This document shows, piece by piece, positions 3,855 to 20,437 of a stretch of 27,343 bases of DNA; within the stretch, counting starts at the first letter, position 1, and each line of letters starts with the position of its first letter. A program made the position numbers and the translations under genes. The notes beneath the pieces were generated by a model, which saw only the letters and a program-made list of their open reading frames with translations, was not told the origin of the DNA and ran no database searches. Source of the stretch: a virus (taxonomy: Duplodnaviria > Heunggongvirae > Uroviricota > Caudoviricetes); IMG/VR virus record IMGVR_UViG_2734482779_000006, positions 1-27,343 of that record; one strand, 5' to 3'.

Positions 3855-3876
3855 CACTGTAAGCCAAGGACGGCAT

Positions 3877-4371
3877 TTATTTTATAGTTTTTATGAATTC
3901 TTTATTAAATCCCTTCGCTTCTCCTGGGTATCTTCCGAAGACAATTTTTATAAAAACAGAAAAAATAAAGATAGCAACGCTTAACAACAATTGCAGTATC
4001 ATTGGAACCCAAAGAACTACAGGCTCTATATTCATGAAACCAAATATTCTTCCGGCGATCATGGCGAAGTACCACACTGTTATCAGCAAACTTAGTGGCA
4101 TATGAATTACTGATATTACCAATCCAAGAGCATCAGTAATTCTGTTTTCAAATTTTTCAGGGGAAAACTTTTCTTTAAGGTAATTCAGTGCGCAGGCCTC
4201 ATTCTCTGGATTTTCAGCATTTTTCCCTATAGCAATAGAAATCTCAGATATCCTTGATTCAATTCTTTTACGTTTAATAAAACTAGAAAAAAAGAACCAC
4301 GCAATCTGCAACCCTATCCCCAGAAATAGAGTTGCGGCAACTAGCACAGCGTAACTCATAGAATCAGACAC
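3877..4371 (-). CDS. small inner-membrane protein, SieA-like superinfection-exclusion candidate
   Basis: Several hydrophobic helices; sits immediately after the gp16-like gene on the opposite strand, where P22 carries sieA; start uncertain (in-frame GTG at 4371 with AGGAGG 5 nt upstream, or ATG at 4359). Confidence 0.4.
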
Positions 4372-4435
4372 ACCAACCTCCTTAGTTTTGTGCAGGATAC
4401 CAGATGATAATGTGTAGTTGGAGTAGCGCGGTTGT

Positions 4436-4526
4436 AATGCAAGCATTTTGTTTTGGTTTTATGCTTGCTTGTATGTGTGTACAGTGTATATAATGCAAGC
4501 ATATATCACAACAAGGTGCTTGCATT
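4436..4526. promoter_or_regulatory. divergent promoter/operator region with four copies of the palindromic motif TGCAAGCA/TGCTTGCA
   Basis: Motif at 4438-4445, 4462-4468, 4494-4501 and 4517-4524; sigma70-like -35 TTGCTT (4465-4470) and -10 TATAAT (4489-4494) overlap copies 2 and 3; copy 4 overlaps the RBS AAGGTG of the 4527 gene. Confidence 0.5.
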
Positions 4527-5519
4527 ATGACAGAAAAGAAAAGTAGTGAAGGGAAAGCTAAGGGCGGGATCGCTCGCGCAAAGTCGCTGACTAAAGAGCA
4601 GCGTTCTGAAATAGCAAAGAAAGCAGCGGCTGCAAGATGGAAGGATAAACCATTAATTGCCACGCATAAGGGATCGTTCCAGCATGAATTCGGGATTGAT
4701 GTTGAGTGCTATGTGTTAAATGATGATAACAAAACTGCCGTTATTAGCCAGAGAGGCATGGGAGAAGCGATTGGTCTTGGCGAAGGTGGCAGCAGGTTGC
4801 CAAAGTTTATTCAGGGGAAAACTATTTCTCAGTATATTGGGCATGAATTAAGGGCAAAACTTGAAAATCCTCTTATTTTTCAATACAAACAGGCGGGCAC
4901 GAACACTCCAGCTAATCCTGTAATACATGGCTACGATGTAACAATATTAATTGATTTATGTCGAGCAATCTCTAATGCTAAAGCTGAAGGTAAGTTGCTT
5001 TCCAGTCAGGAAGGGATTGCTAAGCAAGCCAGAATCATTATTGATGCATCAGCCAAGGCGGGCATTCAGGGGCTTGTTTATGCTTTGGCAGGGTATGACA
5101 GAACAAAAGAAGAGGTAATTCAAGCATATAAGCGATATGTTGCTGAAGAGGCTCGTGAGTATGAAAGAGAGTTCACCCCTGAACTTTATGAGCATTGGTA
5201 TCGTTTGTATGGTATAGACAAACCAGTTAGAGGGCGACCATGGGCGTTTAAATATCTTACGATAGATCACATTTATTACCCATTAGCCAGAAGTGAAGGA
5301 AAGGTATTTAATTTAGCAAAAACTTCAAAAGAAGAGAAAGGCAGCAAAAACGATAAAATACACCAGTTTTTATCAGAGGTTGGAGTTAAGGCTCTTAGAA
5401 CCCAAATAGGTAAGGTTACTGGTATTGCAATGGTTTCTGATACTCGAGAAGAGTATGAGAAATACATAGATGAAAAGGTTATTGGACAAAGAACCATAGA
5501 CTTAAAAGATAAAGAATAA
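4527..5519 (+). CDS. hypothetical phage accessory protein with a basic K/A/R-rich N-terminal segment
   Basis: 330-aa ORF with good RBS and a downstream intrinsic terminator; N-terminus KGGIARAKSLTKEQRSEIAKKAAAARW suggests nucleic-acid binding; located between sieA-like and mnt. Confidence 0.6.
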   Translation: MTEKKSSEGKAKGGIARAKSLTKEQRSEIAKKAAAARWKDKPLIATHKGSFQHEFGIDVECYVLNDDNKTAVISQRGMGEAIGLGEGGSRLPKFIQGKTISQYIGHELRAKLENPLIFQYKQAGTNTPANPVIHGYDVTILIDLCRAISNAKAEGKLLSSQEGIAKQARIIIDASAKAGIQGLVYALAGYDRTKEEVIQAYKRYVAEEAREYEREFTPELYEHWYRLYGIDKPVRGRPWAFKYLTIDHIYYPLARSEGKVFNLAKTSKEEKGSKNDKIHQFLSEVGVKALRTQIGKVTGIAMVSDTREEYEKYIDEKVIGQRTIDLKDKE

Positions 5520-5520
5520 G

Positions 5521-5548
5521 AAAAACCCACCGTCAGGTGGGTTTTTTG
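5521..5548. terminator. bidirectional intrinsic terminator
   Basis: Stem ACCCACC/GGTGGGT with loop GTCA, flanked by an A-run upstream and a T-run downstream; lies between convergent genes ending at 5519 and 5533. Confidence 0.6.
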
Positions 5549-5784
5549 TTTTCTTGCATGTTCCTCAGCGTCTCAAGCAGCGCCTCTTTGAATTTGTCAG
5601 CTTCTTGCTGAGCAAATGACTCAACTGACTTTGGCGACCTATCTTCATCAATCGCGGCCTGCAAAATCATGACGATCTCGGAGTTAACAGAGCGACCATT
5701 TTTTGATGCTCTGACAGCAAGAGCCTCACGTAAAGATTCAGGGATTCTTACCGTAGTTGGAGAAATTGACACACCCTTTGCCAT
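5533..5784 (-). CDS. mnt: Mnt-like ribbon-helix-helix repressor
   Basis: 83 aa, the same length as P22 Mnt; conserved RHH core (RIPESLREALAVRASKNGRSVNSEIV against P22 FRMPMEVREKLKFRAEANGRSMNSELL); divergent from arc as in P22 immI. Confidence 0.8.
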   Translation of the reverse strand: MAKGVSISPTTVRIPESLREALAVRASKNGRSVNSEIVMILQAAIDEDRSPKSVESFAQQEADKFKEALLETLRNMQENKKPT

Positions 5785-5898
5785 ATCACACCTTTGGTAT
5801 TCAATTTGATATCAAAGTGTATGCAAAAAAATTTTGACTAGATATACTCACTTTGCTATCTTTTGTATTCGAAAAGAGTTGTTTGTGTGGAGGGTAAC
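5785..5898. promoter_or_regulatory. divergent mnt/arc promoter-operator region
   Basis: Perfect 12-bp palindrome TTTGATATCAAA at 5805-5816 next to the mnt start; -35 TTGACT at 5834-5839 with candidate -10 TATCTT at 5857-5862 facing arc. Confidence 0.45.
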
Positions 5899-6051
5899 AT
5901 GGAGAAAGAAATAAGTAAGATTTTGGTAAGGATGCCGCAGTCGTTAAAGGATGCTATCGGTAGCAGGGCAAAGGAAGAGTGCAGGTCGTTTAACTCAGAG
6001 GTTATCAAGCGCCTGATAGACAGCCTGAAGAGAGAGGGGGTGGCGATATGA
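5899..6051 (+). CDS. arc: Arc-like ribbon-helix-helix repressor
   Basis: 50 aa from ATG 5899 (GGAGGG RBS); RMPQSLKDAIGSRAKEECRSFNSEVIKRLIDSLKREG aligns with P22 Arc RWPREVLDLVRKVAEENGRSVNSEIYQRVMESFKKEG. Confidence 0.75.
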   Translation: MEKEISKILVRMPQSLKDAIGSRAKEECRSFNSEVIKRLIDSLKREGVAI

Positions 6052-6230
6052 ATAAAGAAGATGGCTTTAAGTGCTCCTTCTGCGGAAAGCCTCAGCATGA
6101 ATGTGCAATGTTGATTCGCGCTAAAGCAGAGATATTTATCTGTAGTGGTTGTGTATCTCTTTGCGTTGAAGCGATGGGGAAAGAGTTAAATTCTAGAAAA
6201 ACAATGTTAGATGTGAACATAAAACAGTGA
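6048..6230 (+). CDS. small zinc-ribbon protein resembling the ClpX N-terminal zinc-binding domain
   Basis: 60 aa; CSFCGKPQHE...IFICSGCVSLC matches the ClpX motif CSFCGKSQHE...YICDECVDLC (C4 zinc site); start ATG overlaps the arc stop (ATGA at 6048-6051). Confidence 0.6.
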   Translation: MNKEDGFKCSFCGKPQHECAMLIRAKAEIFICSGCVSLCVEAMGKELNSRKTMLDVNIKQ

Positions 6231-6292
6231 AGCCCCAACTGCGGTAACAGTCAGGGCTTCGGTTGTCGGTAAATCCGTGGAGAAAAACCAAC

Positions 6293-7195
6293 ATGAATAG
6301 TATAGCAATTTTAGAAGCAGTAAACACCTCTTACGTACCTTTCAATGGTCAGCAGATTATCACCGCCATGGCTGCCGGAGTTGCATATGTTGCGATGAAG
6401 CCAATCGTTGAAAACCTCGGAATGAGCTGGGGTACTCAGCAACAAAAACTTATGAAACAACTAGATAAGTTCAACTGTATTCATATGAATATGGTTGCTG
6501 CTGATGGAAAGCTTCGTAAGTTACTCTGCCTTCCTTTGAAGAAGTTAAATGGGTGGCTGTTCAGCATTAACCCTGAGAAAGTTCGTGCTGACATCCGCGA
6601 TAAACTTATTCAGTACCAGGAAGAATGCTTTACTGTGCTGCATGACTACTGGACGAAGGGAAAGGCAGAAAATGCACGTAAGAAAACATCTGTTGATGAC
6701 AGGACTCCGCTTCGTGATGCTGTAAATATGCTAGTCAGCAAAAAGCATCTAATGTACCCAGAAGCTTATGCAATGATTCATCAGCGTTTCAATGTGGAAA
6801 GTATTGAAGAGCTTGATGCATCTCAGATACCGCAAGCCGTAGAGTACATCCACAGGGTAGTGCTTGAAGGTGAGTTCATTGGCAAACAAGAGAAGAAGAC
6901 CAACGAGCTTTCTGCAAAAGAAGCAAACAGTCTTGTATGGTTATGGGATTATGCCAACCGCTCACAGGCATTATTCCGCGAACTGTATCCGGCATTAAAA
7001 CAAATTCAATCGAACTATTCCGGCAGATGCTACGACTACGGTCATGAATTCTCGTATGTTCTCGGAATGGCGAGAGACGTTTTAATAAACCACACACGAG
7101 ATGTTGATATTAATGAGCCAGACGGACCAACGAATCTTTCCGCATGGATGAGACTTAAGAATAAAGAATTGCCTCCTTCAGTACATAACTACTGA
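6293..7195 (+). CDS. ant: Ant antirepressor
   Basis: N-terminus [22 protein letters not shown] matches the P22 Ant N-terminus as recalled; the true start is ATG 6293 rather than the TTG at 6263; followed by an intrinsic terminator. Confidence 0.85.
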
Positions 7196-7214
7196 CAGAT
7201 AACCAACGCAACGA

Positions 7215-7238
7215 CCCAGCTTCGGCTGGGTTTTTTTA
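7215..7238 (+). terminator. rho-independent terminator after ant
   Basis: Hairpin CCCAGC-TTCG-GCTGGG followed by TTTTTTT. Confidence 0.7.
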
Positions 7239-7305
7239 TGCCCAAAATTCACCGTAGCTACGCTGCGGCGATTCCTTGTATCTGGAGCAAATTAAATGAC
7301 AGACA

Positions 7306-7794
7306 TTATCTAAAACAAGCAAACTCGCCATGATATTTTTCCCTGAATGCAATAGACATCAATTCGGCCAGCTCAATATCATCGGTATACCCAAGGCAAA
7401 TAGACTTACCTTTTAGTTTGAACATAACTTTATATGTGTTTTTCCCTTTAAGAAGATGAACTCCTTTTATACCTGTATTGGATGATGAAACGCTGTTGGT
7501 TTTATTCTGACCTCTGGTTACTTCTCTTAGGTTTGAAATTCTATTGTCATTTTTAACCCCGTTAATATGGTCAATTAACCCTTTAGGCCAGCATCCTTTC
7601 ATATAAAACCAAGCAAGTCGGTGGCAAAGATACGATTTTCCATTAATCCGTATTGATAAGTAGTCGGCCTGTGAGTTCGTCTTAAATCCAGCAACCTTTC
7701 CGATACTGGAGCTACCAGAAGCTATCTTCCAAGTGAAGACGCCTGTTTCTGGGTTGTAGTTGAGTGAAGAGGTTAATTCTTTATGAGTAATCAT
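7306..7794 (-). CDS. HNH homing-type endonuclease (HNH_3/AP2-like)
   Basis: Motifs CHRLAW...GLIDHINGVKNDNRISNLR typical of phage HNH endonucleases; ATG at 7794 has better RBS spacing (AAGGA plus 6 nt) than the ATG at 7800. Confidence 0.75.
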   Translation of the reverse strand: MITHKELTSSLNYNPETGVFTWKIASGSSSIGKVAGFKTNSQADYLSIRINGKSYLCHRLAWFYMKGCWPKGLIDHINGVKNDNRISNLREVTRGQNKTNSVSSSNTGIKGVHLLKGKNTYKVMFKLKGKSICLGYTDDIELAELMSIAFREKYHGEFACFR

Positions 7795-7820
7795 ATTCAT
7801 TCCTTAAATAGAGATTCACT

Positions 7821-9953
7821 ATGTCAAATATTGTGCCAAATGTTATAATTTCAATGCCAAGTCAACTATTTACGTTAGCCAGAAAATTCCAAGCCGCAAG
7901 CAATGGCAAGATATTCATTGGTAAGATAGATTCCGATCCTACGCTCCCACAGAATCAAGTGCAGGTTTATGTGGAGAATGAAGACGGTTCTCACGTTCCT
8001 GTTTCGCAACCAATCATCATTAACGCTGCTGGTTATCCTGTATATAACGGACAGATTGCCAAATTCGTTACCGTGCAAGGCCATTCTATGGCTGTTTATG
8101 ATGCGTATGGTGCACAGCAGTTTTACTACCCAAACATTCTGAAATATAACCCTGACCAATTAGAGTTGAGATTAATTGGACCGGATGGTTTTAAATACAT
8201 AGGGAGATGCAAAAATATTAATGATTTACGTCTAATAGAACCAACAATTGAAAGTCAATTAATAAATGTTATTGAGCATAGTGATGGTGTTGGTATCGGT
8301 GGCGGTTTTTTTGAGTATGATTCAACAGATAATACTTCAGAAGATGATGATGGAATGATAATTGTCACGCCTGGTGGAAAGCGTTGGAAAAGGATATGCA
8401 ATAAAGTGTATGCTGATTATTACGGAATTGTTCCAGATGGAGTAACGGATTATCATGATAAATTGAACAAAGCACTGCAAGCGGCAAAAATGGCAACGGT
8501 GAAAGAGCTTATTCTTTCTGAAGGTACTTACGGGATTAACTCTGCACTGAAAGTACCATCTCACGTTAGATTGCGTGGGGTGGGGAAATTTAAGACCGTT
8601 ATTCTAGCACTACCAACAATGCCGATAATTGAAAACTGTATTCAGAACGAGCTTTATGAATACAGGGTATTCAGGACAAACTACGATACTTCTATCCACA
8701 TAGAAGACTTATGTGTAGATGCTAACAATCGAGCAAGAAATCCGTCAGAAACATGGATGGATGCCACACAGGGGACTACTATTTTATTTTCTACTGTTAG
8801 CCACAGTTCCATCAAAAACGTTTACTGTAAGCGTGGTTTGCAGCATGGTATAGATATTTGTGCCGGGTATTATTTCGATGATGGAAATATTGATAATAAT
8901 GCAGTTGGCGGTAGCTATGACATTGTTGTTGAAGACACTTTTGTTCAAAACAGTCAACTTGACGATCTCATTACAACGCATAATAGCAGTGATATTGTAA
9001 TTAACCGCTGCCGAGTATGGAACGATGACCCATCTCAAGTATGGAATGATAACCAACACGGAATTGAAATTGATGAAGGAAGTTATAACGTCACAGTAAT
9101 GGATTGTTATGCTGAAAATGTTATCACTGGGTTTCAACAAAAAGGTCACTCCACTACAATGCCTGCTAGAAGTGTCCGATTCATTCGTTGTTATGCAAAA
9201 GATTGTGTTTACAGTTTCCAAATTGAACATCGAAACTCACAAACAATACCTTCTGGGCAACATCAACAAGCGCGTAATTCAGTGATTGAGGATTGTACGT
9301 CTGATAACGCAAATAATATTAAATATCAGGCTCTTCACGCTCGCGCGCTTCTTGTTTTAGGTTTTTTTGGTGTTTATGTGCGAAATCTGAGAGTTATAGG
9401 AGGGTCAGGAAATATATATTTAACTGGTGGTGCTAAATATATAAATATCGATGGTGTTCAGTGGACTGGAGGGTATGATGGAGCATCAAGCACCACACAG
9501 GAAGGGTTGATACATATAGAAACTAACGCAGCAGTTGATGATTATTGCATTCGTGATTTTATATGTGAAGATACGGTTACCGTGCCACTTATAAGAGACC
9601 TTACTGACACCACTGTTCAGCGAGAAATATCAAATGTTCGTGGGTATGGCGGGGATAATTCAATCCCAATGATCGCTATTGCGCCGCAGTCTGGTGATAA
9701 TATATCTAATATATCTAATGCGGGTACGTGGGCCTGCGCCATTAGAGATATGGCTAGAGAGGTAGGACAAGGTGATTACGCTCAAAGTGTATCCTTCCAG
9801 AATGGTTTCATTTTTATTTCAGGTAATGGCACCCCAAATGGGGTTATATCTGGCAAACCTGGTGCCGTGTATGTTAACACGGCGAGTGGATTTCAGTATC
9901 TTTGCACGGCTATAGGCAAAAATAACTGGGTTCCAATTACAACCGGAGTTTGA
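7821..9953 (+). CDS. tailspike protein with P22-type N-terminal head-binding domain
   Basis: First ~110 aa ([49 protein letters not shown]...[15 protein letters not shown]...LKYNPDQ) closely parallel the P22 gp9 N-terminus; the remainder is a long divergent receptor-binding region; 710 aa. Confidence 0.9.
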
Positions 9954-10012
9954 TGGTTAAAAATATCACACGCAAAGCTTTGCATCGGTTTGCAAGGTTT
10001 TGCGCCAATTCC

Positions 10013-11170
10013 CTATGATACATTCCCATCAAGCCAGTCCGCCCACCATTGCATCATTTCTCTGCGCTTATCCAGATACTGAGCATGGTTGTAAATCCCG
10101 CGTACAGATCCGCCGTTGGCATGTGCCAGTTGCACTTCAATAGCATCAGCAGGCCATTCGTGCTCGTTCATAATTGTGCTGAATTCATGCCTGAATCCGT
10201 GACCGCTTTCCAGACCTTCATAGCCGATTTGTTTGATCACAAGCAATACCGCGTTCTCGCAGATTGGCTTCTTCTTATCGTTGCGACCGGCAAAAACAAA
10301 CTCTGATACTGGTTTAGTGATTGAGCTTAGCGTAGTGAGAAGTTCAATCACCTGGTCTGACATAGGAACCACATGAATTTTGCGTCCTTTCATCACACTG
10401 GCGTCGATGGTGATAATCCTGTTTTCAAAATCGACGTTCTTCCATTGCATGGAACGAAGCTCTTTAGTTCTTAGGGCTGTATAGCGTAAAACCTTGGTGG
10501 CAATGAGCGATACGATACTTCCTGAAAATGTTGCCAGTGCTTTGTTGAATGCCGGGATCTGGTCTGCAGGAAGAAACGGGAAGTTCTTCTTGCGGTATCC
10601 CTTCATGGCGTCAGCAAGGTCAGGTGCCGGGTTATATTTAGCCCTTCCGGTGACAATAGCGTAACGGAAAACCTCGCCGCATCTTCTGCGTGCTTTGTTG
10701 GCTCGCTCCATTGCCCCGCGATCTTCAAATCTGCGGATTACTTCCAACAGTTGCATCGGCTCAATATCCTGAATTTCAAGGCCGCCGATGATGGGTAAAA
10801 TGTCGTCATCAAACATTTTTGCAAGTTCATTTGCATAGCCTACTGACCAGACTTGCTTCTTGTGCTCGTACCATTCCTTGTAAATGGCGCTAAAGGAGTT
10901 GTTGTTAGACGAAGCCTTTTTCGCCTTTACCGGATCGATGCCAACCGAGATGTCTTTCCTCGCGGTCCATGCTTTATCCCTTGCCTCCTGCAAAGTCATA
11001 AGCGGATATTTTCCGACGGTCAGGATTTTCTCCTTACCGTCAATCTTGTAGCGAAGCTGCCATACCTTTTTCCCGGATACAGGGACATAAAGGTACAGTC
11101 CATTACCATCGAGAAGGCGGTATGGTTTTTCTTTCGGCTTTGCTGCTTCAATCTGCTTAACGGTGAGCAT
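10013..11170 (-). CDS. intS: IntS-type tyrosine integrase (P4-like, argW-specific)
   Basis: 385 aa from MLTVKQIEAAKPKEKPYRLLDGNGLYLYV (integrase N-terminal arm-binding type); catalytic motifs GHGFRHEFST and LAHANGGSVRGIYNHAQY; the 16-bp argW-derived att core lies about 160 bp upstream. Confidence 0.9.
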   Translation of the reverse strand: MLTVKQIEAAKPKEKPYRLLDGNGLYLYVPVSGKKVWQLRYKIDGKEKILTVGKYPLMTLQEARDKAWTARKDISVGIDPVKAKKASSNNNSFSAIYKEWYEHKKQVWSVGYANELAKMFDDDILPIIGGLEIQDIEPMQLLEVIRRFEDRGAMERANKARRRCGEVFRYAIVTGRAKYNPAPDLADAMKGYRKKNFPFLPADQIPAFNKALATFSGSIVSLIATKVLRYTALRTKELRSMQWKNVDFENRIITIDASVMKGRKIHVVPMSDQVIELLTTLSSITKPVSEFVFAGRNDKKKPICENAVLLVIKQIGYEGLESGHGFRHEFSTIMNEHEWPADAIEVQLAHANGGSVRGIYNHAQYLDKRREMMQWWADWLDGNVS

Positions 11171-11330
11171 GGGTAAAAATCCGGTGGGTAAAATTATTTT
11201 ATCCACTTTTTACCCGTCATGTAGTGCGGCTGTCAACGATCTGACGCGAACCATGACGAACTGTAAATCTACGGAAGGCTTGATATTCAGGGGATTTTGC
11301 GGACTGGTACGGATGGGAGCGAACTGATAA

Positions 11331-11346
11331 ATGGTGTCCCCTGCAG
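11331..11346. repeat. att core direct repeat ATGGTGTCCCCTGCAG, identical to the argW 3' end at 23971-23986
   Basis: Exact 16-bp match to the tRNA acceptor/T-arm 3' end; positioned upstream of the intS start in the same way that argW sits upstream of the second integrase. Confidence 0.65.
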
Positions 11347-11568
11347 AAATCATCTTAATTATTATCGTATTGATTTATATGTTATTTATTTTGGCTGTCT
11401 TGTTTTTGTACCCGTTTTGTACCCGTTTTATTCTATTCCCAATTTAAACTTCGATTCTGAAAAGGTGAGTGGGGGAGGTTATCATTTTATGTATCATTGT
11501 TGTAGACACAGAATAATTACTCGCCTATCCTCACTGTATACACACCATAGATACAGGAGTTAACCCAC

Positions 11569-11817
11569 ATGCGCACACAGGTTGTATTGCAAAAATGGGG
11601 TAACAGCATTGCCCTTCGACTAACGGGAAACCTTAAAACCGTTCCGGGTTTTTCAGTGGGTGATATCGTCAACGTTGAAATTAGTGAAAAAGGGCTTTTT
11701 GTAGAAAAGCCTGCACGCCGTCGCCTGAGTGAAGCCGAACTACTCGCCGGGATAACGCCAGTTACAGCGCACGCTGACGAAATTGCCACCCCATTCAATG
11801 AGGAGGTTGATTACTGA
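11569..11817 (+). CDS. MazE/ChpS-family antitoxin (AbrB/SpoVT fold)
   Basis: 82 aa; KWGNSIALRL motif and acidic C-terminus typical of MazE/ChpBI; stop overlaps the toxin start. Confidence 0.8.
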   Translation: MRTQVVLQKWGNSIALRLTGNLKTVPGFSVGDIVNVEISEKGLFVEKPARRRLSEAELLAGITPVTAHADEIATPFNEEVDY

Positions 11818-12161
11818 TGTTTGTACCTAAGCGTGGTGATATTTGCTGGCTGGATTTTGAGCCGCAGAAAGGAAAAGAGATCGGAAAGTATCGCCCGGCA
11901 CTCATACTGTCCCATGAGCAATATAACCGACTCACCGGGTTTGTCATATGCTGCCCCATAAGTACGAGCATACGAAATGCTCCCACAGAAGTTCCGGTAA
12001 CAAATCTGGACGCCCCCAGCGTGGTAGCAACCACACTCATTCAAACCCTTGACTGGCGTCAGCGGAAAGCGCGCTTAATCACAGAGGCAGAAGATGGGGT
12101 ATTTAATGATGTGCTTGAAAGAGTCATTACTCTGATTGGTGGAGAGCATCTGCTTAAGTAA
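11817..12161 (+). CDS. MazF/PemK-family endoribonuclease toxin
   Basis: 114 aa; PKRGDICWLDFEPQKGKEIGKYRPALIL matches the MazF/ChpBK N-terminal signature; start overlaps the antitoxin stop by 1 nt. Confidence 0.85.
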   Translation: MFVPKRGDICWLDFEPQKGKEIGKYRPALILSHEQYNRLTGFVICCPISTSIRNAPTEVPVTNLDAPSVVATTLIQTLDWRQRKARLITEAEDGVFNDVLERVITLIGGEHLLK

Positions 12162-12204
12162 AAGGAGGGCTGAGAAGCCCTCAACGTTACCGGAAATTTC
12201 CTTG

Positions 12205-13476
12205 CTATTCTTTCCAGTCAATCCCATCCAGTAAGCACCCTGCCTCATATTGCCCCACCACCCAGTCAAGGTTACAGGACTCATAGAACGAGAGGCGATT
12301 ATACTGAGGCTCGTTTTTTACCAGGCCACGAACGGAACCACGCTGCCAGTACAGACACAGATTGGCAAGAGGTGTGATCAATACAGCATTGTCCGGGAAA
12401 AATGGAACGGTTACAGCCGGGAGATTCCCCAGAACGGGATTTTTAATGATTTCCTCGTTAAGCAAAATTTCCTGATTCATCTGCGATGGATCAAGACGGT
12501 TTATCAAAGGCCATTGTTTACGGACCAGCGTATTGTGACTGCATACGGCCACAATGCCTTCCTGCCACTGTTCATCAATCATGGATTGCCAGGCATCCAG
12601 AACGAGCGCATCTATCGTATGGTGTGTACCGCGTGTATTACTTTTCGGTGATGAAACAGAAAGGCCGCTGATAACCCTTCCCGCCGCTTCATTTCGAAAC
12701 TTCTGCAACCAGCCCACGCCACAATCGTCACGCCCCGGATATGTTTTAGGGTCAGATTTGGCGGCATAATGTGTGCCGTTAAAACCAATCTGAATTAAAT
12801 CCAGCCATTTCCGGCGTTCAAAAGCGGCCCGCGCACTTCCTTCAAGGCCGTTTGCGGATGCGTGAGCATCGGCATTGTCGTAGTTCAACGCAAAATCAAA
12901 ATTAACCTGCTCGCAGCGGTAGCCCCTTGAAACCAGTGAATGCGCCTGTAGTGGCGAACGGCGCTCGTGAGGTGGCGATGTACGTGCCAACGACCCCGAA
13001 GCGTCTACCAGCACAACCCGACCTGATATATCCGTAACAGGCACGGGAGTTATTTCAGCAAGGAAATTTGCCTGCCATCCACTGGCAAGCGTTGCACTCT
13101 GGCGAGGAACGGGTTCAACTTCTGACGAATAGCGCGCAGTGTCACCGGAAAAGTGCAAATCCTTCGGATGCTTTCCGGTTATCGACTCGATAGCGCAATT
13201 GAAAACCATCTGAGACTGTTGATTTCGTTGTGATACAACAGAATCAGCAGTGCAATTATAACGCTCAATGCCGTCGTTATTACCCCCACCGCTTGCAGTA
13301 TGCAGGGTGTGAAGCTCAAGCTCACGCTCCAGTTTTTGATATTCATTGTCCAGCGCGCGACGCGTCTCATCGCTTATGCTTGCTGTGTTTGCTTTCAGGC
13401 GATTCCGGGACATTAATCCCCTGAGTCGGCTCACTATATCAGCGCCGTGCAAATGTGGAGTATTCAGACCGCCCAT
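12205..13476 (-). CDS. candidate P2-family major capsid protein (gpN-like)
   Basis: 423 aa from the ATG overlapping the upstream stop (TAATG at 13474-13478); segments NFDF...GFNG...GWLQKFRNEA...GNLPAVTVPFFPDNAVLITPLANL...NYxSxNLDWVVGQYEAGCL resemble my recollection of P2-family capsid proteins; sits in a late-type operon downstream of an Ogr/Delta gene; needs confirmation. Confidence 0.45.
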   Translation of the reverse strand: MGGLNTPHLHGADIVSRLRGLMSRNRLKANTASISDETRRALDNEYQKLERELELHTLHTASGGGNNDGIERYNCTADSVVSQRNQQSQMVFNCAIESITGKHPKDLHFSGDTARYSSEVEPVPRQSATLASGWQANFLAEITPVPVTDISGRVVLVDASGSLARTSPPHERRSPLQAHSLVSRGYRCEQVNFDFALNYDNADAHASANGLEGSARAAFERRKWLDLIQIGFNGTHYAAKSDPKTYPGRDDCGVGWLQKFRNEAAGRVISGLSVSSPKSNTRGTHHTIDALVLDAWQSMIDEQWQEGIVAVCSHNTLVRKQWPLINRLDPSQMNQEILLNEEIIKNPVLGNLPAVTVPFFPDNAVLITPLANLCLYWQRGSVRGLVKNEPQYNRLSFYESCNLDWVVGQYEAGCLLDGIDWKE

Positions 13477-14186
13477 TACTGCCACCCCCGGCAGAGTTCT
13501 CTGCCCTCCGCAAGGTCGCGCATTTTTTCTGGATTCTGTCGCGCCGCGCTCCATTGTACAGGTGAAGGGGCGCTCCTGATTGCGCAGCTTACTGAATCCG
13601 GGAGTTTCTCCGGGCAATAACGCAGCGGGCTGGAGGTGTCGCTTTCGGTATCGTTAATCCGGCCGCGAATCATCCCGACACTTTCAGCAGTATCTGCCGC
13701 TTTCAGTGTTTCGCATATTTTCTTTTCTGCGTTATACAGCGGCTGGCCAAGCAGCTCACATAAACCACGAATCAATAACAGAACAGGGGTCAGCTCGTTA
13801 ATCAGTTCGGGAAGTGCTTTTGCAAATATCTCTGCCCGCAACTTATTATCAATACTTTCGTAAGCACAACCAGCCTCTGCCGCGTTATAACGACACTCCA
13901 GTAGCCTGATGCGCGCCTCATCATGCAGCACCCGCAGACGCTCAAGATTTTCTCGCGCCACACCCGCCTGAATGGATAATTTCGCGGAGGCTTCCGTTTT
14001 TACTCCCAGCGCAGACAGGATTGAGTTCTGCCAGTCACGATCGAGAGACTCCAGTTCCCCTTTCGTCTGTTCGATAGTCGCTTCCAGATTGGTGACTAAT
14101 GATTCCTGTTCACTGAGCTTTGCCCTGGCTGTATCAAACTGTGCTTTACATACCTGATGTTCGGCGCTTGCCTGAGTTATATCCAT
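13476..14186 (-). CDS. coiled-coil protein, candidate capsid scaffolding or size-determination protein (gpO/Sid-like)
   Basis: 236 aa, strongly helical and heptad-like N-terminal half; translationally coupled to the capsid-like gene; size close to P4 Sid (244 aa as recalled). Confidence 0.4.
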   Translation of the reverse strand: MDITQASAEHQVCKAQFDTARAKLSEQESLVTNLEATIEQTKGELESLDRDWQNSILSALGVKTEASAKLSIQAGVARENLERLRVLHDEARIRLLECRYNAAEAGCAYESIDNKLRAEIFAKALPELINELTPVLLLIRGLCELLGQPLYNAEKKICETLKAADTAESVGMIRGRINDTESDTSSPLRYCPEKLPDSVSCAIRSAPSPVQWSAARQNPEKMRDLAEGRELCRGWQ

Positions 14187-14350
14187 TATTTGCTCCTGTA
14201 ATACATTTTTTACTTACGCCGATTTTTTCCATATTGCGTAATACATTCCAGCCGATTTTGTTCTCGTAATACGCTCACAATACTGTTGTATTACGCTTTC
14301 TTATATCGCGGGTGTTAAATCCCGACATAAACAATCAGGGAGGCAACACG

Positions 14351-14584
14351 ATGAAAAAACAAAAGAAAATGCGATGCGTATTACGCTGTATTCGTATTCC
14401 GCTCGAAATCGACCATAAAATAAATCAGATATGTAAGGACAGAGAGATGAACTACTCCCAGTGCGTCAGGATGTTTATCAGTCAGGGAATTAAGGCTGGG
14501 GAAAAGCATGAAGAAGACCGCAACGGGCGCAATGTCGCGGGGGATGTGTGGGCCTGGGCAAATGACCAGAACCACACGACATAA
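14351..14584 (+). CDS. small ribbon-helix-helix (CopG/Arc-like) DNA-binding protein
   Basis: 77 aa from ATG 14351 (GGGAGG RBS); RCIRIPLEIDHKINQICKDREMNYSQCVRMFISQG fits a beta-strand then helix-helix RHH pattern; divergent from the scaffold/capsid operon. Confidence 0.5.
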   Translation: MKKQKKMRCVLRCIRIPLEIDHKINQICKDREMNYSQCVRMFISQGIKAGEKHEEDRNGRNVAGDVWAWANDQNHTT

Positions 14585-14634
14585 TACAGAAATAACGCAG
14601 CCGGTCACACTCGCTGGCTGTGTTATACAAATCA

Positions 14635-14817
14635 CTATGAAGTTTTCGACTTCCTGCGCTTAGTGATGCGTACAAACGACTCAAGCGTACAAAAACAGGC
14701 CCCGCACTCAATATTATTGCACTGGTAATACGTTTTGTAGATGTTTTGTTCGTGTTCTTCCAACGAACGACCACGGGTGCGGGCTGAAGCGCCACAGGCC
14801 GGGCAAGGGAAAGACAT
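14635..14817 (-). CDS. Ogr/Delta-family zinc-finger late transcription activator
   Basis: CPACGASARTR...YYQCNNIECGACF is the C-x2-C...C-x4-C Ogr/Delta zinc finger; AGGAG RBS 6 nt upstream of ATG 14817. Confidence 0.8.
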   Translation of the reverse strand: MSFPCPACGASARTRGRSLEEHEQNIYKTYYQCNNIECGACFCTLESFVRITKRRKSKTS

Positions 14818-15387
14818 ATCACGCTCCTCTTACTGGTGTGAAATTTAACCTATTATATCTTCCGCCGCCTCCTCTGGCTGTATCAAATAAATCCGCAACG
14901 GTCGCTGCGTATTACGCGCAGGCACACCGTTCCCATACTCACTCCTCACATTCCCCGTATCAGTTCTCTCTTGCAGTAAGAACGGCTCTGGCTGGCGATA
15001 AAACTAACCCGGTCGGGCATTCCCACAGTCTTTAGCGAAAGATGTAATTTACCCCCTGAAACGCGGGCTGTTCCCCCGTCACCTGCGCGCGAAAAACTCA
15101 CCGTTTTTTGTGCACGCACGAAATCGCCCTCCGGGCGCGCCCGTACTGGGCCGGATGGGCAAAAAGTTACTCTAAAAAATTGTGCAAATTTGTGCACTTT
15201 TGTGCAAACGGGAAGAGGCTGTTTAAAGGCGGTTTTTTGCGTTTTTTTGGTAGCTGTAACGTGATGCGTATTACGTTTTTATTCGCTTCTATGTGAAGAG
15301 ATAACAATGATTTCATTCAATTTATTGTGTTGCACTTTTGTTGCTGGTCTTGCCAGTGTTTTTTTGCCTCTACCTCAAAATCCGGTA

Positions 15388-15690
15388 GGGGGTGCGCAAA
15401 CGGGTTACAAAGGTTACAGCCCCCTAAAACACATATTAACACCATGATTTTAAATGAAATTGTTTGTAACCTTTTTGAGGTTACAGAAGGTTACACGAGG
15501 TTACACCAATTAAAAACATATTAATTATCAATTAGTTATAAGCGTGCTCTGTAACCATGCGTAACCTCTGCATAAAGGTTACATGTAACCCTGTTGTAAC
15601 CCATTTTGTAACCTTTTAAAGGTGTTATAATATATTGATATATAATATATTTTTCTGTTTGTAACCTTTGTAACCCGTTTGCGCACCCCC
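15388..15690. repeat. 30-bp perfect inverted repeat (15388-15417 and 15661-15690) flanking an array of about 14 GGTTAC/GTAACC hexamer iterons
   Basis: Left arm GGGGGTGCGCAAACGGGTTACAAAGGTTAC is the exact reverse complement of the right arm; hexamers between the arms often fall at 10-11 bp phasing; AT-rich core TATAATATATTGATATATAATATA at about 15626-15650. Confidence 0.7.
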
Positions 15691-15940
15691 CCCCGGACTT
15701 TAGCGCGCGCCTTTAAAATGTTAATTAAACTAACTTACTATGTGTCACTCTCATTAACTTTCTGTGACTAAAATGTGTCTCGTCACTGTGGAACTCTTTC
15801 TGATAATCAGGGGGCAAAAAATTGATGGCGGCACCACTGCAATATGGCCACCATTGCATTGCTGTTACCGTTGGTTCTGGCCAACAAAAAAGGCCAGTGG
15901 AAAACTGACCTCTTTTGCTGTGAATGTAGTGTTCTGCGGG

Positions 15941-16942
15941 TTACTCTGCTGGCTCTTTTTCTTTGGCGATATTCGCATTAGCCACTGGATTAAACTTCAG
16001 GACATCAGACAAATAATCAGGCGCAAAATGTGCGTATATCATTGTTTGTTGAATATTTGCATGCCCTAAAACTCGCTGAAGAGCAATTATACTCCCTCCA
16101 TTCATCATAAAATGCGTAGCGAATGTATGCCGTAATACATGAACAGCTTGCCCCTTTGGCAGATCTGGCTTTACAGCGCGAAGCATTTTACGGTATTCAC
16201 CATAATCAACATCAAACAACCCCCCCGAATCTTTTGTTTTGATTTCGCGAACAACTTCATTTGAAATGGGAACAATGCGGACTTTACCGTTTTTGGTTTT
16301 GTTAAATATCACACGATTATCAATGATGTGTTCTGCTCGCAAGCTTTTTGCCTCTCCCCATCTGGCCCCCGTACTAAGGCACAGCAATGTAATTCGACGC
16401 GCATCACCATTAGAAAAATTCAACAAACGAATAATTTCTTCATGTGTCAGATATGTCATTTCTGAAATCTTTCGTTTCATAGCGGGAACAGAACGAACAG
16501 GATTTTTACTATGAAATTCTCCACTCTGGATCAACATGGTGAACATTCCAGCCAATTCCGCTTCATCTCGCTGAATTGTAGAAATTTTGACTCCTGCTCC
16601 CAATCTCTCGCTGCGATACATAGCCATAAACCGCGCATTTATTTGTTCTGCTCGCGGATCTCCCATTTCTTTAATTACTTTCTTTAGTCTTAATTTAACA
16701 TTGTCAGCGTATGGTTTGTTGCGTCCACCCAGTTTCCACCACAGCTCCAAGAGTTCAGAAATGCGCCTGTGATCAGCTGGCTTTTCAAGCCACTCTTTAT
16801 CATTCATATGGCTAAGAACATATCGCTCAAAAGCTAAGGCATCTGCTTTCTTTTTAAAAAGCCGCTGAATTCTGCGTCCATACCGCCCGTTTGGCCTGAT
16901 ATCTACCTTATAGGAGCCATCATCACGCTTTTTAACGGACAT
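15941..16942 (-). CDS. P2-type tyrosine integrase/recombinase
   Basis: 333 aa from ATG 16942 (AGGAGGG RBS 9 nt upstream, 3 nt after the primase stop); N-terminus MSVKKRDDGSYKVDIRPNGRYGRR is typical of P2-family integrases; catalytic HVLRHTFATHF and LGHANIQQTMIYAHF. Confidence 0.85.
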   Translation of the reverse strand: MSVKKRDDGSYKVDIRPNGRYGRRIQRLFKKKADALAFERYVLSHMNDKEWLEKPADHRRISELLELWWKLGGRNKPYADNVKLRLKKVIKEMGDPRAEQINARFMAMYRSERLGAGVKISTIQRDEAELAGMFTMLIQSGEFHSKNPVRSVPAMKRKISEMTYLTHEEIIRLLNFSNGDARRITLLCLSTGARWGEAKSLRAEHIIDNRVIFNKTKNGKVRIVPISNEVVREIKTKDSGGLFDVDYGEYRKMLRAVKPDLPKGQAVHVLRHTFATHFMMNGGSIIALQRVLGHANIQQTMIYAHFAPDYLSDVLKFNPVANANIAKEKEPAE

Positions 16943-16944
16943 AT

Positions 16945-19614
16945 TTAGCGTCCCTCCTTGTAGCTGAATATCCAGCATTTCAATACTTCATTTTCTTTAG
17001 CCTGGGCTACCCCCCTTCCGGTGTTCGCCTGTTTGACTACCTCGCTACGGACTGACTTGTACCCAATCAGTGGCCGAGAACGACCAGTCTTGAGAAGCTT
17101 TATCATTTCGGGATTGGTTTGGATCTTCACATGGTGAATAGCGGCAACCTGCTCCAGTTGCGGGATACTAACGGCAAGCCCATTCTGGGATCCCTTGCCA
17201 AAGTGGTTTACGCCGTATGCTGTTATGCCGTCCAGATAGTCGAACGCCTCCCAGAACGCTATTACTTCCGGCAAGTCATCCGTTACCGCTTTAGCTTGTT
17301 CCGCTGCCATTCGTTCCAGTTCCTGGCATGTGGCATTAAGCCATTCATCCGGGATATCAATAACGCATTTCAGCGCCCTGACCAGCGCAATAAGTTGCGC
17401 GTGATTTTTGGCAATACGCTGATGACGAATATTTTCGCAACCATAAAGGCGGGTTGTTTCAGGATCAGATAGTGCCATAAACGTCTCCATAATCGCCCGT
17501 TCCTGACTTACTGCCCGATGGATAAAACCTGATACCTGCTCAACGGGGTAAAGCTCCAGCCGTTTTGCTGCCAATCGGCTATCTGGTGAGTGGCGTTTTT
17601 TATCGGTGTATACGCGTACCAGACGCTCAATAATTGCCGATGAGGCGTTTACCGTGGCATTCTGCGCAATCACGATAGCCCCCTTAAAAACGGGGTCATA
17701 TGTGGCGTTATCATTGGTTTTAACGCCACGCACCCCAATACCGCCACCGTTATAGAGGCTTTTCAGGTTATCGAAATCAAACGCCCCCCTTTTTTGTGCG
17801 TTATCGCCCCTGTCCGCTTCAATCAGAACAACAGGTAATCCAGCAACCTGTCCAAAAGTTCGCTTCCAGCCTGATTCTGAGCCTTTGGTTGGATCAACAC
17901 CTTCATAGTTGTCACGGCCACACAAACGCCAGCAAAAATCAATTAACGTTGTTTTACCCGTACCTGGCTCTCCGGTAATCTCAAGAAAGGGGTAAGATGT
18001 GTTTTTCTGCCTGATTTGTTCGCTGAACAACGAACCCAACCAGAAAGCCAGGGTAATAATTCCCTTTTCACCAAACGCCAGCCAGAGATCTTCCACCCAG
18101 GATGTTGTAAATTCATCCGGTTTTTTATAGTTAATCTGCAATATTGGTTTTTTATTCAATGGTTTTGCGTTTACGCCATCAATTTCAAAATAATCCTCTT
18201 CATTGATTTCGTAGGTTTTACCATTACAAACCGCGATATCATTAAACAACCACGCACCAATCTCTTTGTTGTATCCGATAAAATCCTGACCGATAACACT
18301 TTTTATTGCGGGAAGGTCATTTTTTATTAATGCGTCAAGGTGCGCAGTTGTTCCGGTATAAATACCGCCTTTTGCTACGTGCAACAGACGTTTTTTAAAT
18401 TCAGATGCGGATGTTAATTGCCCTGATGTAAAGGTGTTTTTCACCGTAGCACCATCCGGGAATGTAATGCGGAAGTAATACCATGCTTCATCCGTATCAT
18501 TGTTTCGAATGTAATAAAGCGGCACTGGGTTACAGTTTGCGATTTCTTTTACAGCGCCGGATTCCTTGAGTGCAATTTTGCGCGCTTCATCTTCGTCAAC
18601 ATTTCGCTCATTAATGACACGCTCAACAGCCTTCATATGGCGCTCAATATCCAGCTTGAACCAGAACACACGGTTATCAAAGGGAAAATGAAATTCCTTT
18701 CGCTCACGAAAGGAAAACATTATTAGTGCCTTATCTCTCGGAGATTTCGCCAGCAATAAATCACCGTAATAACGGTATCTTTTCACATCATGGCCACGTA
18801 GCTTTCCGGCGATGTGTAAATCATTCCAGTCGCGTTTATTGTTGTTTTCACCCGGTAACGCCGCTGCCGTTCTCCAGCCGCCTTCGGCGCTGCGTTCTGC
18901 ATGTTTTTTTGCGTAACGCTCACCCGCACGCCCGTTATCCAGCGCCCACACAATAACCGGACGGGGATTATCTCCGCACAGCTTCGCCAGTTCTTCCAGC
19001 GCCTTATCAGGGTAGTTCACGGCAGACATGACAGAAACGGCCGCAATGCCATTCTGGTTAAGGCTGATGGCATCAAAGACACCCTCACAAATCCAGATTT
19101 CTTTGGCCTTGCTTAAATCTGCTCCCGGATAAGCCCACCACAGCCCCTTGTAGCTGCCGGAAAAATTCGCCTTGCGCGCGAAGCGTTCCGGTCGGTCTAT
19201 GATGCGCTCCCACCACACACCGTCAGCCAGCGTAAAACGCACGGTAGCAGCTTGTTCGCCGCTTTCCTTGTCCTGGTATCGCTCCTGAGTAAATGCGCCC
19301 TTCAGTGGCTCCACAGCAATATTGCGCGCCTCCTGAAGATAAGCTGCCGCCGCTGCGTATGGATCGTCTTTCGTGCTGATATAGCGATCTGACCATGATG
19401 AAAACACATCCGGGTAAAGTTCTTTGGTCAGCAGGTCTGTACCGCATTTATTTTCACGCCCGCAGTGTACGATGTACGGCCTTTCAAGGCTGGTAAACAG
19501 CTCCTTCTTTCCACATTGCGGACAAACACCATACCGAAGGTAGTTATTTTCTTCTTTGAAGTTGTAATCACGGATAAGACGGTTAATAATCTCTTTTCTG
19601 GTATCAGGCTTCAT
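16945..19614 (-). CDS. P4 alpha-like primase-helicase
   Basis: 889 aa; N-terminal zinc-binding CPQCGKK...HCGRENKC; Walker A GEPGTGKTT in the C-terminal helicase region; location and size typical of satellite-phage alpha proteins. Confidence 0.9.
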   Translation of the reverse strand: MKPDTRKEIINRLIRDYNFKEENNYLRYGVCPQCGKKELFTSLERPYIVHCGRENKCGTDLLTKELYPDVFSSWSDRYISTKDDPYAAAAAYLQEARNIAVEPLKGAFTQERYQDKESGEQAATVRFTLADGVWWERIIDRPERFARKANFSGSYKGLWWAYPGADLSKAKEIWICEGVFDAISLNQNGIAAVSVMSAVNYPDKALEELAKLCGDNPRPVIVWALDNGRAGERYAKKHAERSAEGGWRTAAALPGENNNKRDWNDLHIAGKLRGHDVKRYRYYGDLLLAKSPRDKALIMFSFRERKEFHFPFDNRVFWFKLDIERHMKAVERVINERNVDEDEARKIALKESGAVKEIANCNPVPLYYIRNNDTDEAWYYFRITFPDGATVKNTFTSGQLTSASEFKKRLLHVAKGGIYTGTTAHLDALIKNDLPAIKSVIGQDFIGYNKEIGAWLFNDIAVCNGKTYEINEEDYFEIDGVNAKPLNKKPILQINYKKPDEFTTSWVEDLWLAFGEKGIITLAFWLGSLFSEQIRQKNTSYPFLEITGEPGTGKTTLIDFCWRLCGRDNYEGVDPTKGSESGWKRTFGQVAGLPVVLIEADRGDNAQKRGAFDFDNLKSLYNGGGIGVRGVKTNDNATYDPVFKGAIVIAQNATVNASSAIIERLVRVYTDKKRHSPDSRLAAKRLELYPVEQVSGFIHRAVSQERAIMETFMALSDPETTRLYGCENIRHQRIAKNHAQLIALVRALKCVIDIPDEWLNATCQELERMAAEQAKAVTDDLPEVIAFWEAFDYLDGITAYGVNHFGKGSQNGLAVSIPQLEQVAAIHHVKIQTNPEMIKLLKTGRSRPLIGYKSVRSEVVKQANTGRGVAQAKENEVLKCWIFSYKEGR

Positions 19615-19660
19615 ATATAAATCCTCTCCCCCCCCCTGTAAAAATACAGGGGGTTATTCT
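19615..19660 (-). other. stem-loop plus G9 tract in the primase 5' leader
   Basis: On the minus strand CCCCCTGTA-TTTTT-ACAGGGGG hairpin followed by GGGGGGGGGAGAGGA and the ATG; no U-tract, so not a canonical terminator. Confidence 0.4.
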
Positions 19661-19966
19661 TTATAATTGTTTATTGCTTTCTGAAATCCCCACAAACCGT
19701 GCAGCATGTAGAGAGAAAGGGCGCTCAGAGTAATAAATATTGCCTTTTATTCTTTCCAGTTCGCGCAACAAAATGCGCAAAATCGCCTTCATTTGTGAAC
19801 CTGATACAATGTCAGCGCCAGGAGTATCTATTGCAATGTCAGAGAAATAAGATAATAAATCAAGTGTTAAAATAACATCACAAAGAGAGTTATTTGCATC
19901 ATCGGAGATAAATCCAACATATTTAGATAAAATATCATGAATAAACATATTCTGATTTTCAGACAT
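19661..19966 (-). CDS. hypothetical protein (satellite early region)
   Basis: 101-aa ORF directly upstream of the primase leader; no recognisable motif. Confidence 0.4.
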   Translation of the reverse strand: MSENQNMFIHDILSKYVGFISDDANNSLCDVILTLDLLSYFSDIAIDTPGADIVSGSQMKAILRILLRELERIKGNIYYSERPFSLHAARFVGISESNKQL

Positions 19967-20033
19967 AAAAGCTCCCCGACCCGTTAAGGCCGAAATATAA
20001 AATTAATTCAGTTATCAGTTGGCAATTCGGGAA

Positions 20034-20252
20034 TCAGGCAGAAAGCTGCGTAACCTTCAACGCCCTGAAATGTGTCATTCCCAGCTCTTCCAGCCCTTCG
20101 GCTGCGCGGCGTATGGCTTCGCCCGGCCCCGTTCCGTATACCGTTGCGTGTGCATGTTTGGTTAACCCGCGCTTATTAACGGCATAACCCAACACAAAGA
20201 AACGTTTTTCACCACTGCCATTATTTTTACGGGATATTGAACGGCTTTTCAT
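20034..20252 (-). CDS. hypothetical small protein
   Basis: 72-aa ORF at the end of a chain of overlapping small genes. Confidence 0.4.
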   Translation of the reverse strand: MKSRSISRKNNGSGEKRFFVLGYAVNKRGLTKHAHATVYGTGPGEAIRRAAEGLEELGMTHFRALKVTQLSA

Positions 20253-20437
20253 TTCTTCACCTTTACCACTGATGCTGTGAGTTCTTCTTCTGGCAATTGA
20301 TATTTCGGCGCAATTTCTTCCGTATACCTGATAGCGTCCCTTGCCGCTTTTCCTTTTGATTTATATTTACGTATCGTGTGGAAGTTTTCTTCCTCTCCTG
20401 TTACCACATTACGCAATTTAATATGGATCTCGTACAT
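20249..20437 (-). CDS. hypothetical small protein
   Basis: 62 aa from internal ATG (MYEIHIKL...); stop overlaps the next start (ATGA). Confidence 0.4.
   Translation of the reverse strand: MYEIHIKLRNVVTGEEENFHTIRKYKSKGKAARDAIRYTEEIAPKYQLPEEELTASVVKVKK

Follow-up and report, generated by a model that had tools for sequence, protein, structure and literature searches.

A mazEF-like toxin–antitoxin pair fixed in the terminal slot of a P4-like phage satellite in Escherichia coli

What does a toxin–antitoxin pair do at the extreme end of a phage satellite, and to which element does it belong? The question is raised by a 27,343-nucleotide stretch of tailed-phage DNA (Caudoviricetes; IMG/VR record IMGVR_UViG_2734482779_000006, positions 1 to 27,343), hereafter the window, in which two small overlapping genes at 11569–12161 lie close to the attachment (att) repeat of an integrated element. 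This element is a 12.6 kb, P4-like satellite (11331–23991), and its insertion site in E. coli is the tRNA gene argW. By itself the pair is ordinary, and RefSeq already annotates a PemK/MazF toxin–antitoxin here; what is added here is a terminal slot that holds toxin–antitoxin modules only, together with the independent recruitment of two MazEF types to it. We give about an even chance to the view that the main role of the pair is that of an addiction module, which stabilises the satellite by penalising its loss.

The two genes follow a bicistronic order in the list of open reading frames (ORFs), antitoxin first and toxin second, both on the plus strand. The mazE-like antitoxin gene (11569–11817) encodes 82 amino acids, with an N-terminal half of AbrB/MazE type and an acidic tail at the C terminus, and the mazF-like toxin gene (11817–12161) encodes 114 amino acids with a predicted PemK/MazF endoribonuclease fold. 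The stop codon of mazE (TGA, 11815–11817) and the start codon of mazF (ATG, 11817–11819) share base 11817 in the string TGATG, which reads GATTAC TGATG TTT across the junction (GATTACTGATGTTT); the 1-nt stop–start overlap reported in a first-pass annotation of this DNA thus holds to the base. Shine–Dalgarno sites precede both genes, with GAGGAGG 11 nt 5′ of the mazF start and AGGAG (11555–11559) 9 nt 5′ of the mazE start.

The toxin matches Pfam PF02452 (PemK_toxin) over residues 5–105 of 114 at E = 7.7e-25 (87.7 bits, cut-off 23.1), PHROG 1936 (‘MazF-like growth inhibitor’) at 2.8e-27, and 25 solved MazF/Kid/EndoA chains in the PDB at E < 1e-3, the best being Klebsiella pneumoniae 7bye (1.1e-20), Deinococcus MazF (8.6e-19) and E. 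coli 1ub4_A (2.6e-16). Scores for the NCBIfam equivalogs are 91 bits for MazF (NF007386, cut-off 120) and 49.3 bits for ChpB (NF007320, cut-off 129). With both under cut-off, the toxin was ruled out as an orthologue of the chromosomal MazF or ChpBK of E. coli; since it reaches 91 bits where the MazF equivalog demands 120, we place it in a paralogous subfamily. For the antitoxin, the PDB matches are MazE chains only, aligned over residues 6–70 at E values of 8.7e-5 to 3.6e-4 for the single sequence and 1.2e-5 to 4.3e-5 for a five-sequence profile. NCBIfam returns MazE at 3.5e-4 (20.9 versus 113 bits) and ChpS at 4e-3, both under cut-off; Pfam returns no match at 0.01, and the RefSeq label is ‘AbrB/MazE/SpoVT family DNA-binding domain-containing protein’. 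Judged from sequence similarity, the pair is a genuine MazE/MazF-type (PemK/MazF superfamily) toxin–antitoxin, and ‘mazEF-like’, the name it was first given, describes it at the appropriate level.

In an alignment with 7bye, R26 falls opposite R28, and S49, with T50 next to it, falls opposite T51; R28 and T51 are the two residues found critical by mutagenesis of K. pneumoniae MazF (PMC8086154). The catalytic arginine is therefore retained, the second catalytic position shows a conservative change from threonine to serine, and a CCP[IV]STS motif is preserved without exception in five homologues. To these residues can be added the record of selection across six contexts, namely the window and five copies found at a second E. 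coli site (L002), on an E. coli plasmid (L003), in two Salmonella satellites (L012 and L015) and in a Brenneria chromosome (L017). All six keep 82 + 114 codons and the same overlap. Between the window and the five copies, synonymous sites are saturated (synonymous divergence, dS, >1.8 or not computable) at a nonsynonymous divergence (dN) of 0.04–0.25, and dN/dS, where computable, is 0.006–0.12 over both genes (0.02–0.12 for mazF, at most 0.08 for mazE). Both genes are under strong purifying selection; identical lengths, the shared overlap and saturated dS with so low a dN in five other contexts put the reality of the genes far beyond chance.

The pair is the last gene pair of the satellite, 218 bp inside the distal att repeat. 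This repeat (11331–11351; ATGGTGTCCCCTGCAGAAATC) is a copy of the argW 3′ end and agrees at 20 of 21 bases with the proximal att copy inside argW (23971–23991; direct repeat D7); argW itself, a tRNA-Arg(CCT) at 23972–24046 on the minus strand, is the single tRNA found by ARAGORN. On the opposite side the capsid-like gene ends at 12205, approximately 44 bp away, so the terminal placement between capsid-like gene and att repeat proposed at first pass is confirmed.

Is the pair, then, part of the satellite, of the host chromosome or of a neighbouring prophage? Among 5426 complete E. coli genomes, 57 have it at ≥95% nucleotide identity, on 57 chromosomes; the capsid-like gene and the gene for a 236-aa protein are likewise found in 57 E. 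coli genomes by megablast and sensitive blastn, and in every one of the matches listed the pair ends approximately 44 bp from the capsid-like gene. A further copy of the element, in strain ETEC6333, lies between hpt and gcd. Its integrase is only 25% identical, it has an att repeat of its own and, at either end, arm repeats of its own (ATATTGATACAC); the pair once more comes last, at 255 bp from att. The argW and hpt copies are homologous from 11485 onwards, just 5′ of the promoter of the pair. Because it starts only there, we read 11352–11484, which holds tandem 11-mers (TTTTGTACCCG twice, 11404–11425), as an integrase-specific attP arm; an arm-like GTACCCGTTTT adjoins the integrase gene near 23843, and in copies at other sites the arm is exchanged together with the integrase. 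The pair belongs to the satellite body and is island-specific, as had been proposed. A host-core origin was rejected, the pair being present in 57 of 5426 genomes and only with the satellite. Ownership by the P22-like/IntS prophage to the left was rejected as well, with the att repeat in between and the pair present at hpt–gcd where that prophage is absent. A trait expected of an addiction module is thus present, in that the pair is co-inherited with the satellite late genes, 57 to 57, at two or more integration sites. Some strains (ETEC1732, ETEC1734 and ETEC4067) have two satellite copies, apparently at argW and near hpt–gcd, each with the same pair.

Comparison with more distant satellites reveals how the end of the element is used. 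A related-locus search with the capsid-like protein retrieved mostly true P2-type capsids, and the family was reached through homologues in a 41–51% identity band, true P2 capsids being at most approximately 40% identical; a distant-homologue search with the 236-aa protein returned near-identical E. coli proteins only. Slot content was read between the capsid-gene stop and host DNA. Salmonella relatives with the same gene order share 78% identity in MazF and 71% in MazE, compared with 51% in the capsid-like protein, 45% in Ogr and 34% in the 236-aa protein; the primase has no match in them, theirs being of a different type. The pair is thus better conserved than the neighbouring genes.

Among nine slot variants, seven carry a toxin–antitoxin module, two are empty and no other type of cargo is found. 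The same mazEF occupies the slot in E. coli L029 (capsid 48% identical), where a 91% nucleotide block is limited to window positions 11485–12315, and a mazEF is found in Salmonella L012 and L013 (capsid 51%). Two further variants show decay. In E. coli L022 (capsid 47%; slot content at 8426–8530 in that locus), mazE is intact at approximately 95% nucleotide identity and mazF is internally deleted, window positions 11854–12137 and mazF codons 13–107 being lost, which leaves an orphan antitoxin. In Salmonella L011 and L014 (capsid 51%), relB/parE has been inserted in place of the promoter and the N-terminal half of mazE (L011 7830–8345); the C-terminal 40 codons of mazE persist with a TTG start, and the adjoining mazF is intact and does not differ from the mazF of satellites whose mazE is complete. 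Salmonella L027 (capsid 50%) carries a canonical E. coli K-12-type mazEF at 6450–7033, co-directional with the capsid gene and hence opposite in orientation to the window pair. Its MazF has 111 aa, matches 1ub4_A at 4e-59 and is 38% identical to the window MazF over 84 aligned residues; by sequence this is best read as an independent acquisition of a MazF-type module. In E. coli L024 and L025 (capsid 43%) the slot holds hok (PF01848, 5.1e-7) with a sok-like RNA (L024 8887–9174; RF01794, E 3.7e-8, 44.5 bits, under the gathering score of 59), and in Klebsiella L018 and L019 (capsid 44%) and Pectobacterium L028 (capsid 48%) it is empty. The slot has therefore received four kinds of toxin–antitoxin module (two MazEF types, RelB/ParE and Hok/Sok), which suggests a position-specific demand in this satellite lineage. 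The description of this region as the variable end of the element stands for diverged relatives, where the content is toxin–antitoxin or nothing, but fails within the lineage of the window, where the pair is invariant (57 of 57).

A second variable slot exists in the relatives between primase/second integrase and ogr (L027 2031–2987; L011/L014 11609–12293; L028 1274–3040; L019 3946–4893). Its cargo is HicA/HicB with a MazE-like gene, a Gp49/HI1420 (HigBA-like) pair, an AIPR abortive-infection protein or DUF4238. The corresponding interval of the window (approximately 14946–15940) contains only an 83-aa ORF and repeats.

Outside satellites, the toxin subfamily is spread through the Gammaproteobacteria, with Salmonella members at 78–83% identity, Brenneria at 80%, Photorhabdus at 79%, Yersinia at 75% and Vibrio at approximately 67%; the wider subfamily is abundant in Vibrio. 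The other E. coli carriers are plasmids only (16 plasmid records in RefSeq complete genomes, 15 in PLSDB), and their copies share 76.5% nucleotide identity with the window pair (MazF 93%, MazE 76%). In pTB-nb2 (L003), the one plasmid examined, the pair directly follows MobA/relaxase genes. PLSDB holds 47 plasmids with the MazF subfamily, about half of them conjugative. In Brenneria the pair is part of a small islet in the chromosome, where there is no satellite, and no relative above 43% identity was found among 50,697 phage records. Measured by these identities, the closest non-satellite relatives are plasmid-borne.

Such mobility could also mark a purely selfish cassette, one of no benefit to satellite or host that lodged in the recombination-prone, att-proximal end, makes loss of its antitoxin lethal and spreads by recombination. 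The pair does move as a unit, as the bounded block it shares with the satellite of 48%-identical capsid-like protein indicates; it occurs on plasmids and in the Brenneria islet, away from any satellite, and intermediates of decay are found. However, the presence of two unrelated MazEF cassettes, relB/parE and hok/sok in one and the same slot suggests selection at the position rather than accident, and the pair has been retained in all 57 E. coli members across the integrase swap. This explanation also overlaps heavily with addiction, from which it is hard to separate, and we hold it to be decidedly unlikely as an account of its own.

The pair travels with its own regulatory region (11485–11568, plus strand), supported by a promoter scan, inverted repeat I1 and alignment A1 and predicted to include an operator. 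A candidate sigma-70-like site at 11503–11531 consists of a −35 element TAGACA (11503–11508), a 17-nt spacer and a −10 element TATCCT (11526–11531), 38 bp upstream of mazE. A 22-nt imperfect outer inverted repeat (11490–11511 and 11534–11555) encloses this promoter-like site, and two TGTAGAYAC boxes are found at 11501–11509 (TGTAGACAC) and 11536–11544 (TGTATACAC). When satellite copies from E. coli and Salmonella are aligned with the plasmid and Brenneria copies, the conserved columns are these boxes and the −10 region, and the flanks are otherwise unalignable; the pair therefore appears to carry its own promoter and a candidate operator to which MazE would bind.

Downstream, a G+C-rich hairpin at 12165–12182, found by a terminator scan, lies between the convergent mazF and capsid-like genes. 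Its T-tract is on the minus strand, making it terminator-like for the satellite late operon, and in the Salmonella satellites L012 and L015 a hairpin is kept with different stem sequences (alignment A2). This arrangement bears on the idea that the pair regulates the satellite life cycle: upon helper infection, converging transcription of the late operon would cut the supply of MazE, and MazF would then reshape host and helper mRNA in favour of the satellite. The convergence of mazF with a late gene only 44 bp away invites such a reading, as does the recruitment of MazF-type toxins twice independently in the satellite family. The conserved hairpin, however, parts the two transcription units, and the canonical mazEF of L027, being co-directional with the late operon, argues that convergence is not general. 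Nor do satellite genes show depletion of candidate MazF/Kid/ChpBK cleavage motifs (ACA, ACT, TAC, TTACT and TACAT) when compared with shuffles of synonymous codons (no |z| above 2). We regard a regulatory role of this kind as very improbable.

A more serious competitor is abortive-infection defence. Here, infection by a non-helper or helper phage would shut off host transcription or trigger proteolysis, MazE would decay, MazF would cleave RNA and sister carriers of the satellite would be protected, in the manner of the systems found in the P4 psu–int hotspot and in the accessory regions of phage-inducible chromosomal islands (PICIs). Several observations can be read this way. The content of the slot varies among relatives, and hok/sok, which occupies it in L024 and L025, has been linked to exclusion of T4. 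In the circular form of the element the slot has the late genes on one side and, across att, int on the other; its topology resembles that of the P4 hotspot, whose gop-beta-cII confers protection from lambda and P1 (PMC9122126). Reports on chromosomal MazEF describe a defence against RNA phages (PMC12151602) and, in Bacillus, one that arbitrium phages modulate (bioRxiv 10.1101/2023.04.27.537455).

Set against this, neither protein has a PADLOC match at E up to 0.01, PemK_toxin appears once only in the supplementary P4-like/P2-like hotspot gene arrangements of PMC9122126, and a 2026 survey (PMC13586616) mentions neither MazE/MazF nor toxin–antitoxins. Turnover is low, with 57 of 57 members of the lineage keeping the pair and only toxin–antitoxin cargo family-wide, compared with hundreds of arrangements at the P4 hotspot. 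Where typical defence genes (AIPR, DUF4238) do occur in relatives, they lie in the second slot, between int2/primase and ogr, and not at the end, and the nearest non-satellite relatives of the pair are on plasmids, next to a relaxase gene in the plasmid examined. Defence thus strikes us as possible but rather unlikely to be the main role. A broader proposal would treat the slot as a hotspot dedicated to toxin–antitoxins, with MazF-type RNases recruited at least twice independently for the conflict between satellite, helper and phage, either to abort infections by competing phages or to bring about a shut-off, triggered by the helper, from which packaging of the satellite would benefit, and not for mere addiction; we consider this doubtful.

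How an addiction module would operate here can be drawn from its relatives. In MazEF and Kis/Kid, the antitoxin is an AbrB-type dimer that acts as repressor of the operon and, by way of its C-terminal tail, inhibits an endoribonuclease that is itself a dimer; when this labile antitoxin is lost, the RNase becomes active. In the satellite, the AbrB-type N-terminal half of MazE would bind the TGTAGAYAC boxes that overlap its own promoter, giving autoregulation, and its acidic C-terminal tail would wrap around the MazF dimer; translation of the two genes would be coupled through the TGATG overlap. MazF, with R26 and S49, is predicted to be a sequence-specific endoribonuclease, and MazE is presumably the labile partner. 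If the satellite were lost, or its transcription stopped, MazF would be freed and growth would stop, with protection against phages as a possible by-product. That MazF is toxic, that MazE is labile and binds the operator, and what the pair does for its carrier are all matters that we infer.

Addiction is favoured because co-inheritance is fixed over integrase swaps, because the pair is more conserved than its neighbours and because the slot takes toxin–antitoxins only. It is favoured further because the closest relatives are on plasmids and because the decay variants either disarm the toxin (L022, mazF deleted and mazE kept) or keep the toxin-binding part of the antitoxin (L011 and L014, the C-terminal 40 residues of MazE beside an intact mazF); these patterns would fit a harmful toxin held in check.

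Several points weigh in the other direction. The sequence features expected of an addiction module are also those expected of an abortive-infection system, and the P4 gop-beta-cII, a toxin–antitoxin-like anti-phage system, occupies a topologically similar place between int and late genes (PMC9122126). The Klebsiella and Pectobacterium relatives manage without any cargo in the slot. Where two copies of the pair share a cell, cross-neutralisation would weaken addiction for either alone. The antitoxin matches are weak (E approximately 1e-5, nothing in Pfam at 0.01 and NCBIfam scores under cut-off), and since the toxin falls under the MazF equivalog cut-off, the cleavage specificity of E. coli MazF is not transferable to it. 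Taken together, the evidence leans mildly to island stabilisation.

The remainder of the satellite explains why we call it P4-like. Its genes and RNAs include a P4-type integrase (22531–23835, minus strand), two P4-type immunity RNAs, namely a C4/CI-type antisense RNA (20840–20927) and isrK (20953–21034), an Ogr/Delta zinc-finger activator (14635–14817), an Icd-like protein, an 889-aa primase and a second integrase of P2/186 type. The 236-aa protein (13476–14186) is a predicted coiled coil. The capsid-like gene (12205–13476, minus strand), convergent with mazF, encodes a homologue of the P2-family major capsid protein (PF05125, 7.6e-72) with 423 aa in RefSeq, the ORF reaching 13617, and with an N-terminal extension of approximately 120 aa. 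No satellite protein has a match to psu or sid hidden Markov models (HMMs), and the P2/P4 cos 19-mer was not found in the window at up to 3 mismatches; on these two grounds the canonical P4 architecture was rejected. The element is P4-like in its regulation and replication genes but is not a canonical P4. Its family is present in E. coli, Salmonella, Klebsiella, Pectobacterium and Erwinia, and the lineage, in which immunity of P4 type is found together with a P2 capsid homologue but Psu and Sid are absent, is little described.

Within the satellite, a dense cluster of GGTTACA/TGTAACC repeats at 15377–15701, including 42-nt inverted arms that are 93% complementary, adjoins the second, central P2/186-type integrase gene (15941–16978; Int_N and Phage_integrase), and similar repeats are found in L002 at 17956–18256. 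The cluster could serve as an origin or as a site of recombination.

Window positions 1–11330, left of the distal att repeat, belong to a P22-like prophage remnant, in tandem at argW and unrelated to the satellite; the repeat at 11331–11351 doubles as the junction with it. The remnant contains an IntS integrase gene (10013–11206, minus strand) and a sar antisense RNA (6226–6292, minus strand); its tailspike and ejection-protein genes are as annotated in the near-identical strain E94.

The satellite offers a natural case of a toxin–antitoxin module that is fixed, terminal and co-inherited across integrase swaps and species. Since the module is fixed and co-inherited, roles in stabilisation and in defence are open to direct test by defined deletions. 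Were an anti-phage or helper-related role to prove true, MazF RNases would join the conflict systems carried by satellites. No description of MazEF on P4-like or PICI satellites was found in the literature searched; the 2021, 2023 and 2026 satellite surveys have no PemK entry, and the supplementary tables of Rousset et al. have one.

As a molecular system, the pair resembles the MazEF of K. pneumoniae (7BYE) and of E. coli K-12 (1UB4) in the fold family of the toxin, the family of the antitoxin (E approximately 1e-4), the antitoxin-first order, the gene sizes (82 + 111–114 aa) and the layout of the antitoxin, whose N-terminal half is of AbrB type and whose C-terminal tail is acidic. The catalytic arginine is common to all three, R26 here corresponding to R28 in K. 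pneumoniae and R29 in E. coli MazF (R29/T52). It departs from E. coli-type MazF in sequence (38% identity over 84 aligned residues), in Ser49 instead of threonine and in NCBIfam scores under cut-off, and, whereas the K-12 genes are part of the chromosomal relA–mazEF locus, these are on a mobile satellite. In this last respect the pair is closer to PemI/PemK of R100 and Kis/Kid of R1, in which a mobile element likewise carries a toxin of the PemK/MazF superfamily and an antitoxin of AbrB type. The toxin resembles Kid only distantly (3.1e-6), and the carrier differs from both plasmids in being an integrated satellite, for which loss means excision without re-integration or packaging.

As satellite cargo, the pair is best compared with the P4 hotspot between psu and int, next to cos (PMC9122126). 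Both are cargo slots in satellites of P2-dependent appearance, located between late genes and integrase when the element is circular, and gop-beta-cII, the prototype cargo of that hotspot, behaves as a toxin–antitoxin pair (PMC9122126). The C4/CI and isrK RNAs, the Icd-like protein, the Ogr/Delta activator and the large primase are further features shared with P4. In contrast to the hotspot of Rousset et al. 2022, the present slot is not at psu–int beside cos, and att separates it from int. Its repertoire is small and consists of toxin–antitoxins only, and the hotspot tables in print contain next to no PemK.

Toxin–antitoxin modules have also been proposed to counter the loss of integrated elements elsewhere, as with MosAT of the SXT integrative and conjugative element and the cassettes of the Vibrio superintegron. 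Like the pair of this satellite, these are type II modules on integrated elements, although the toxin families and the carriers differ.

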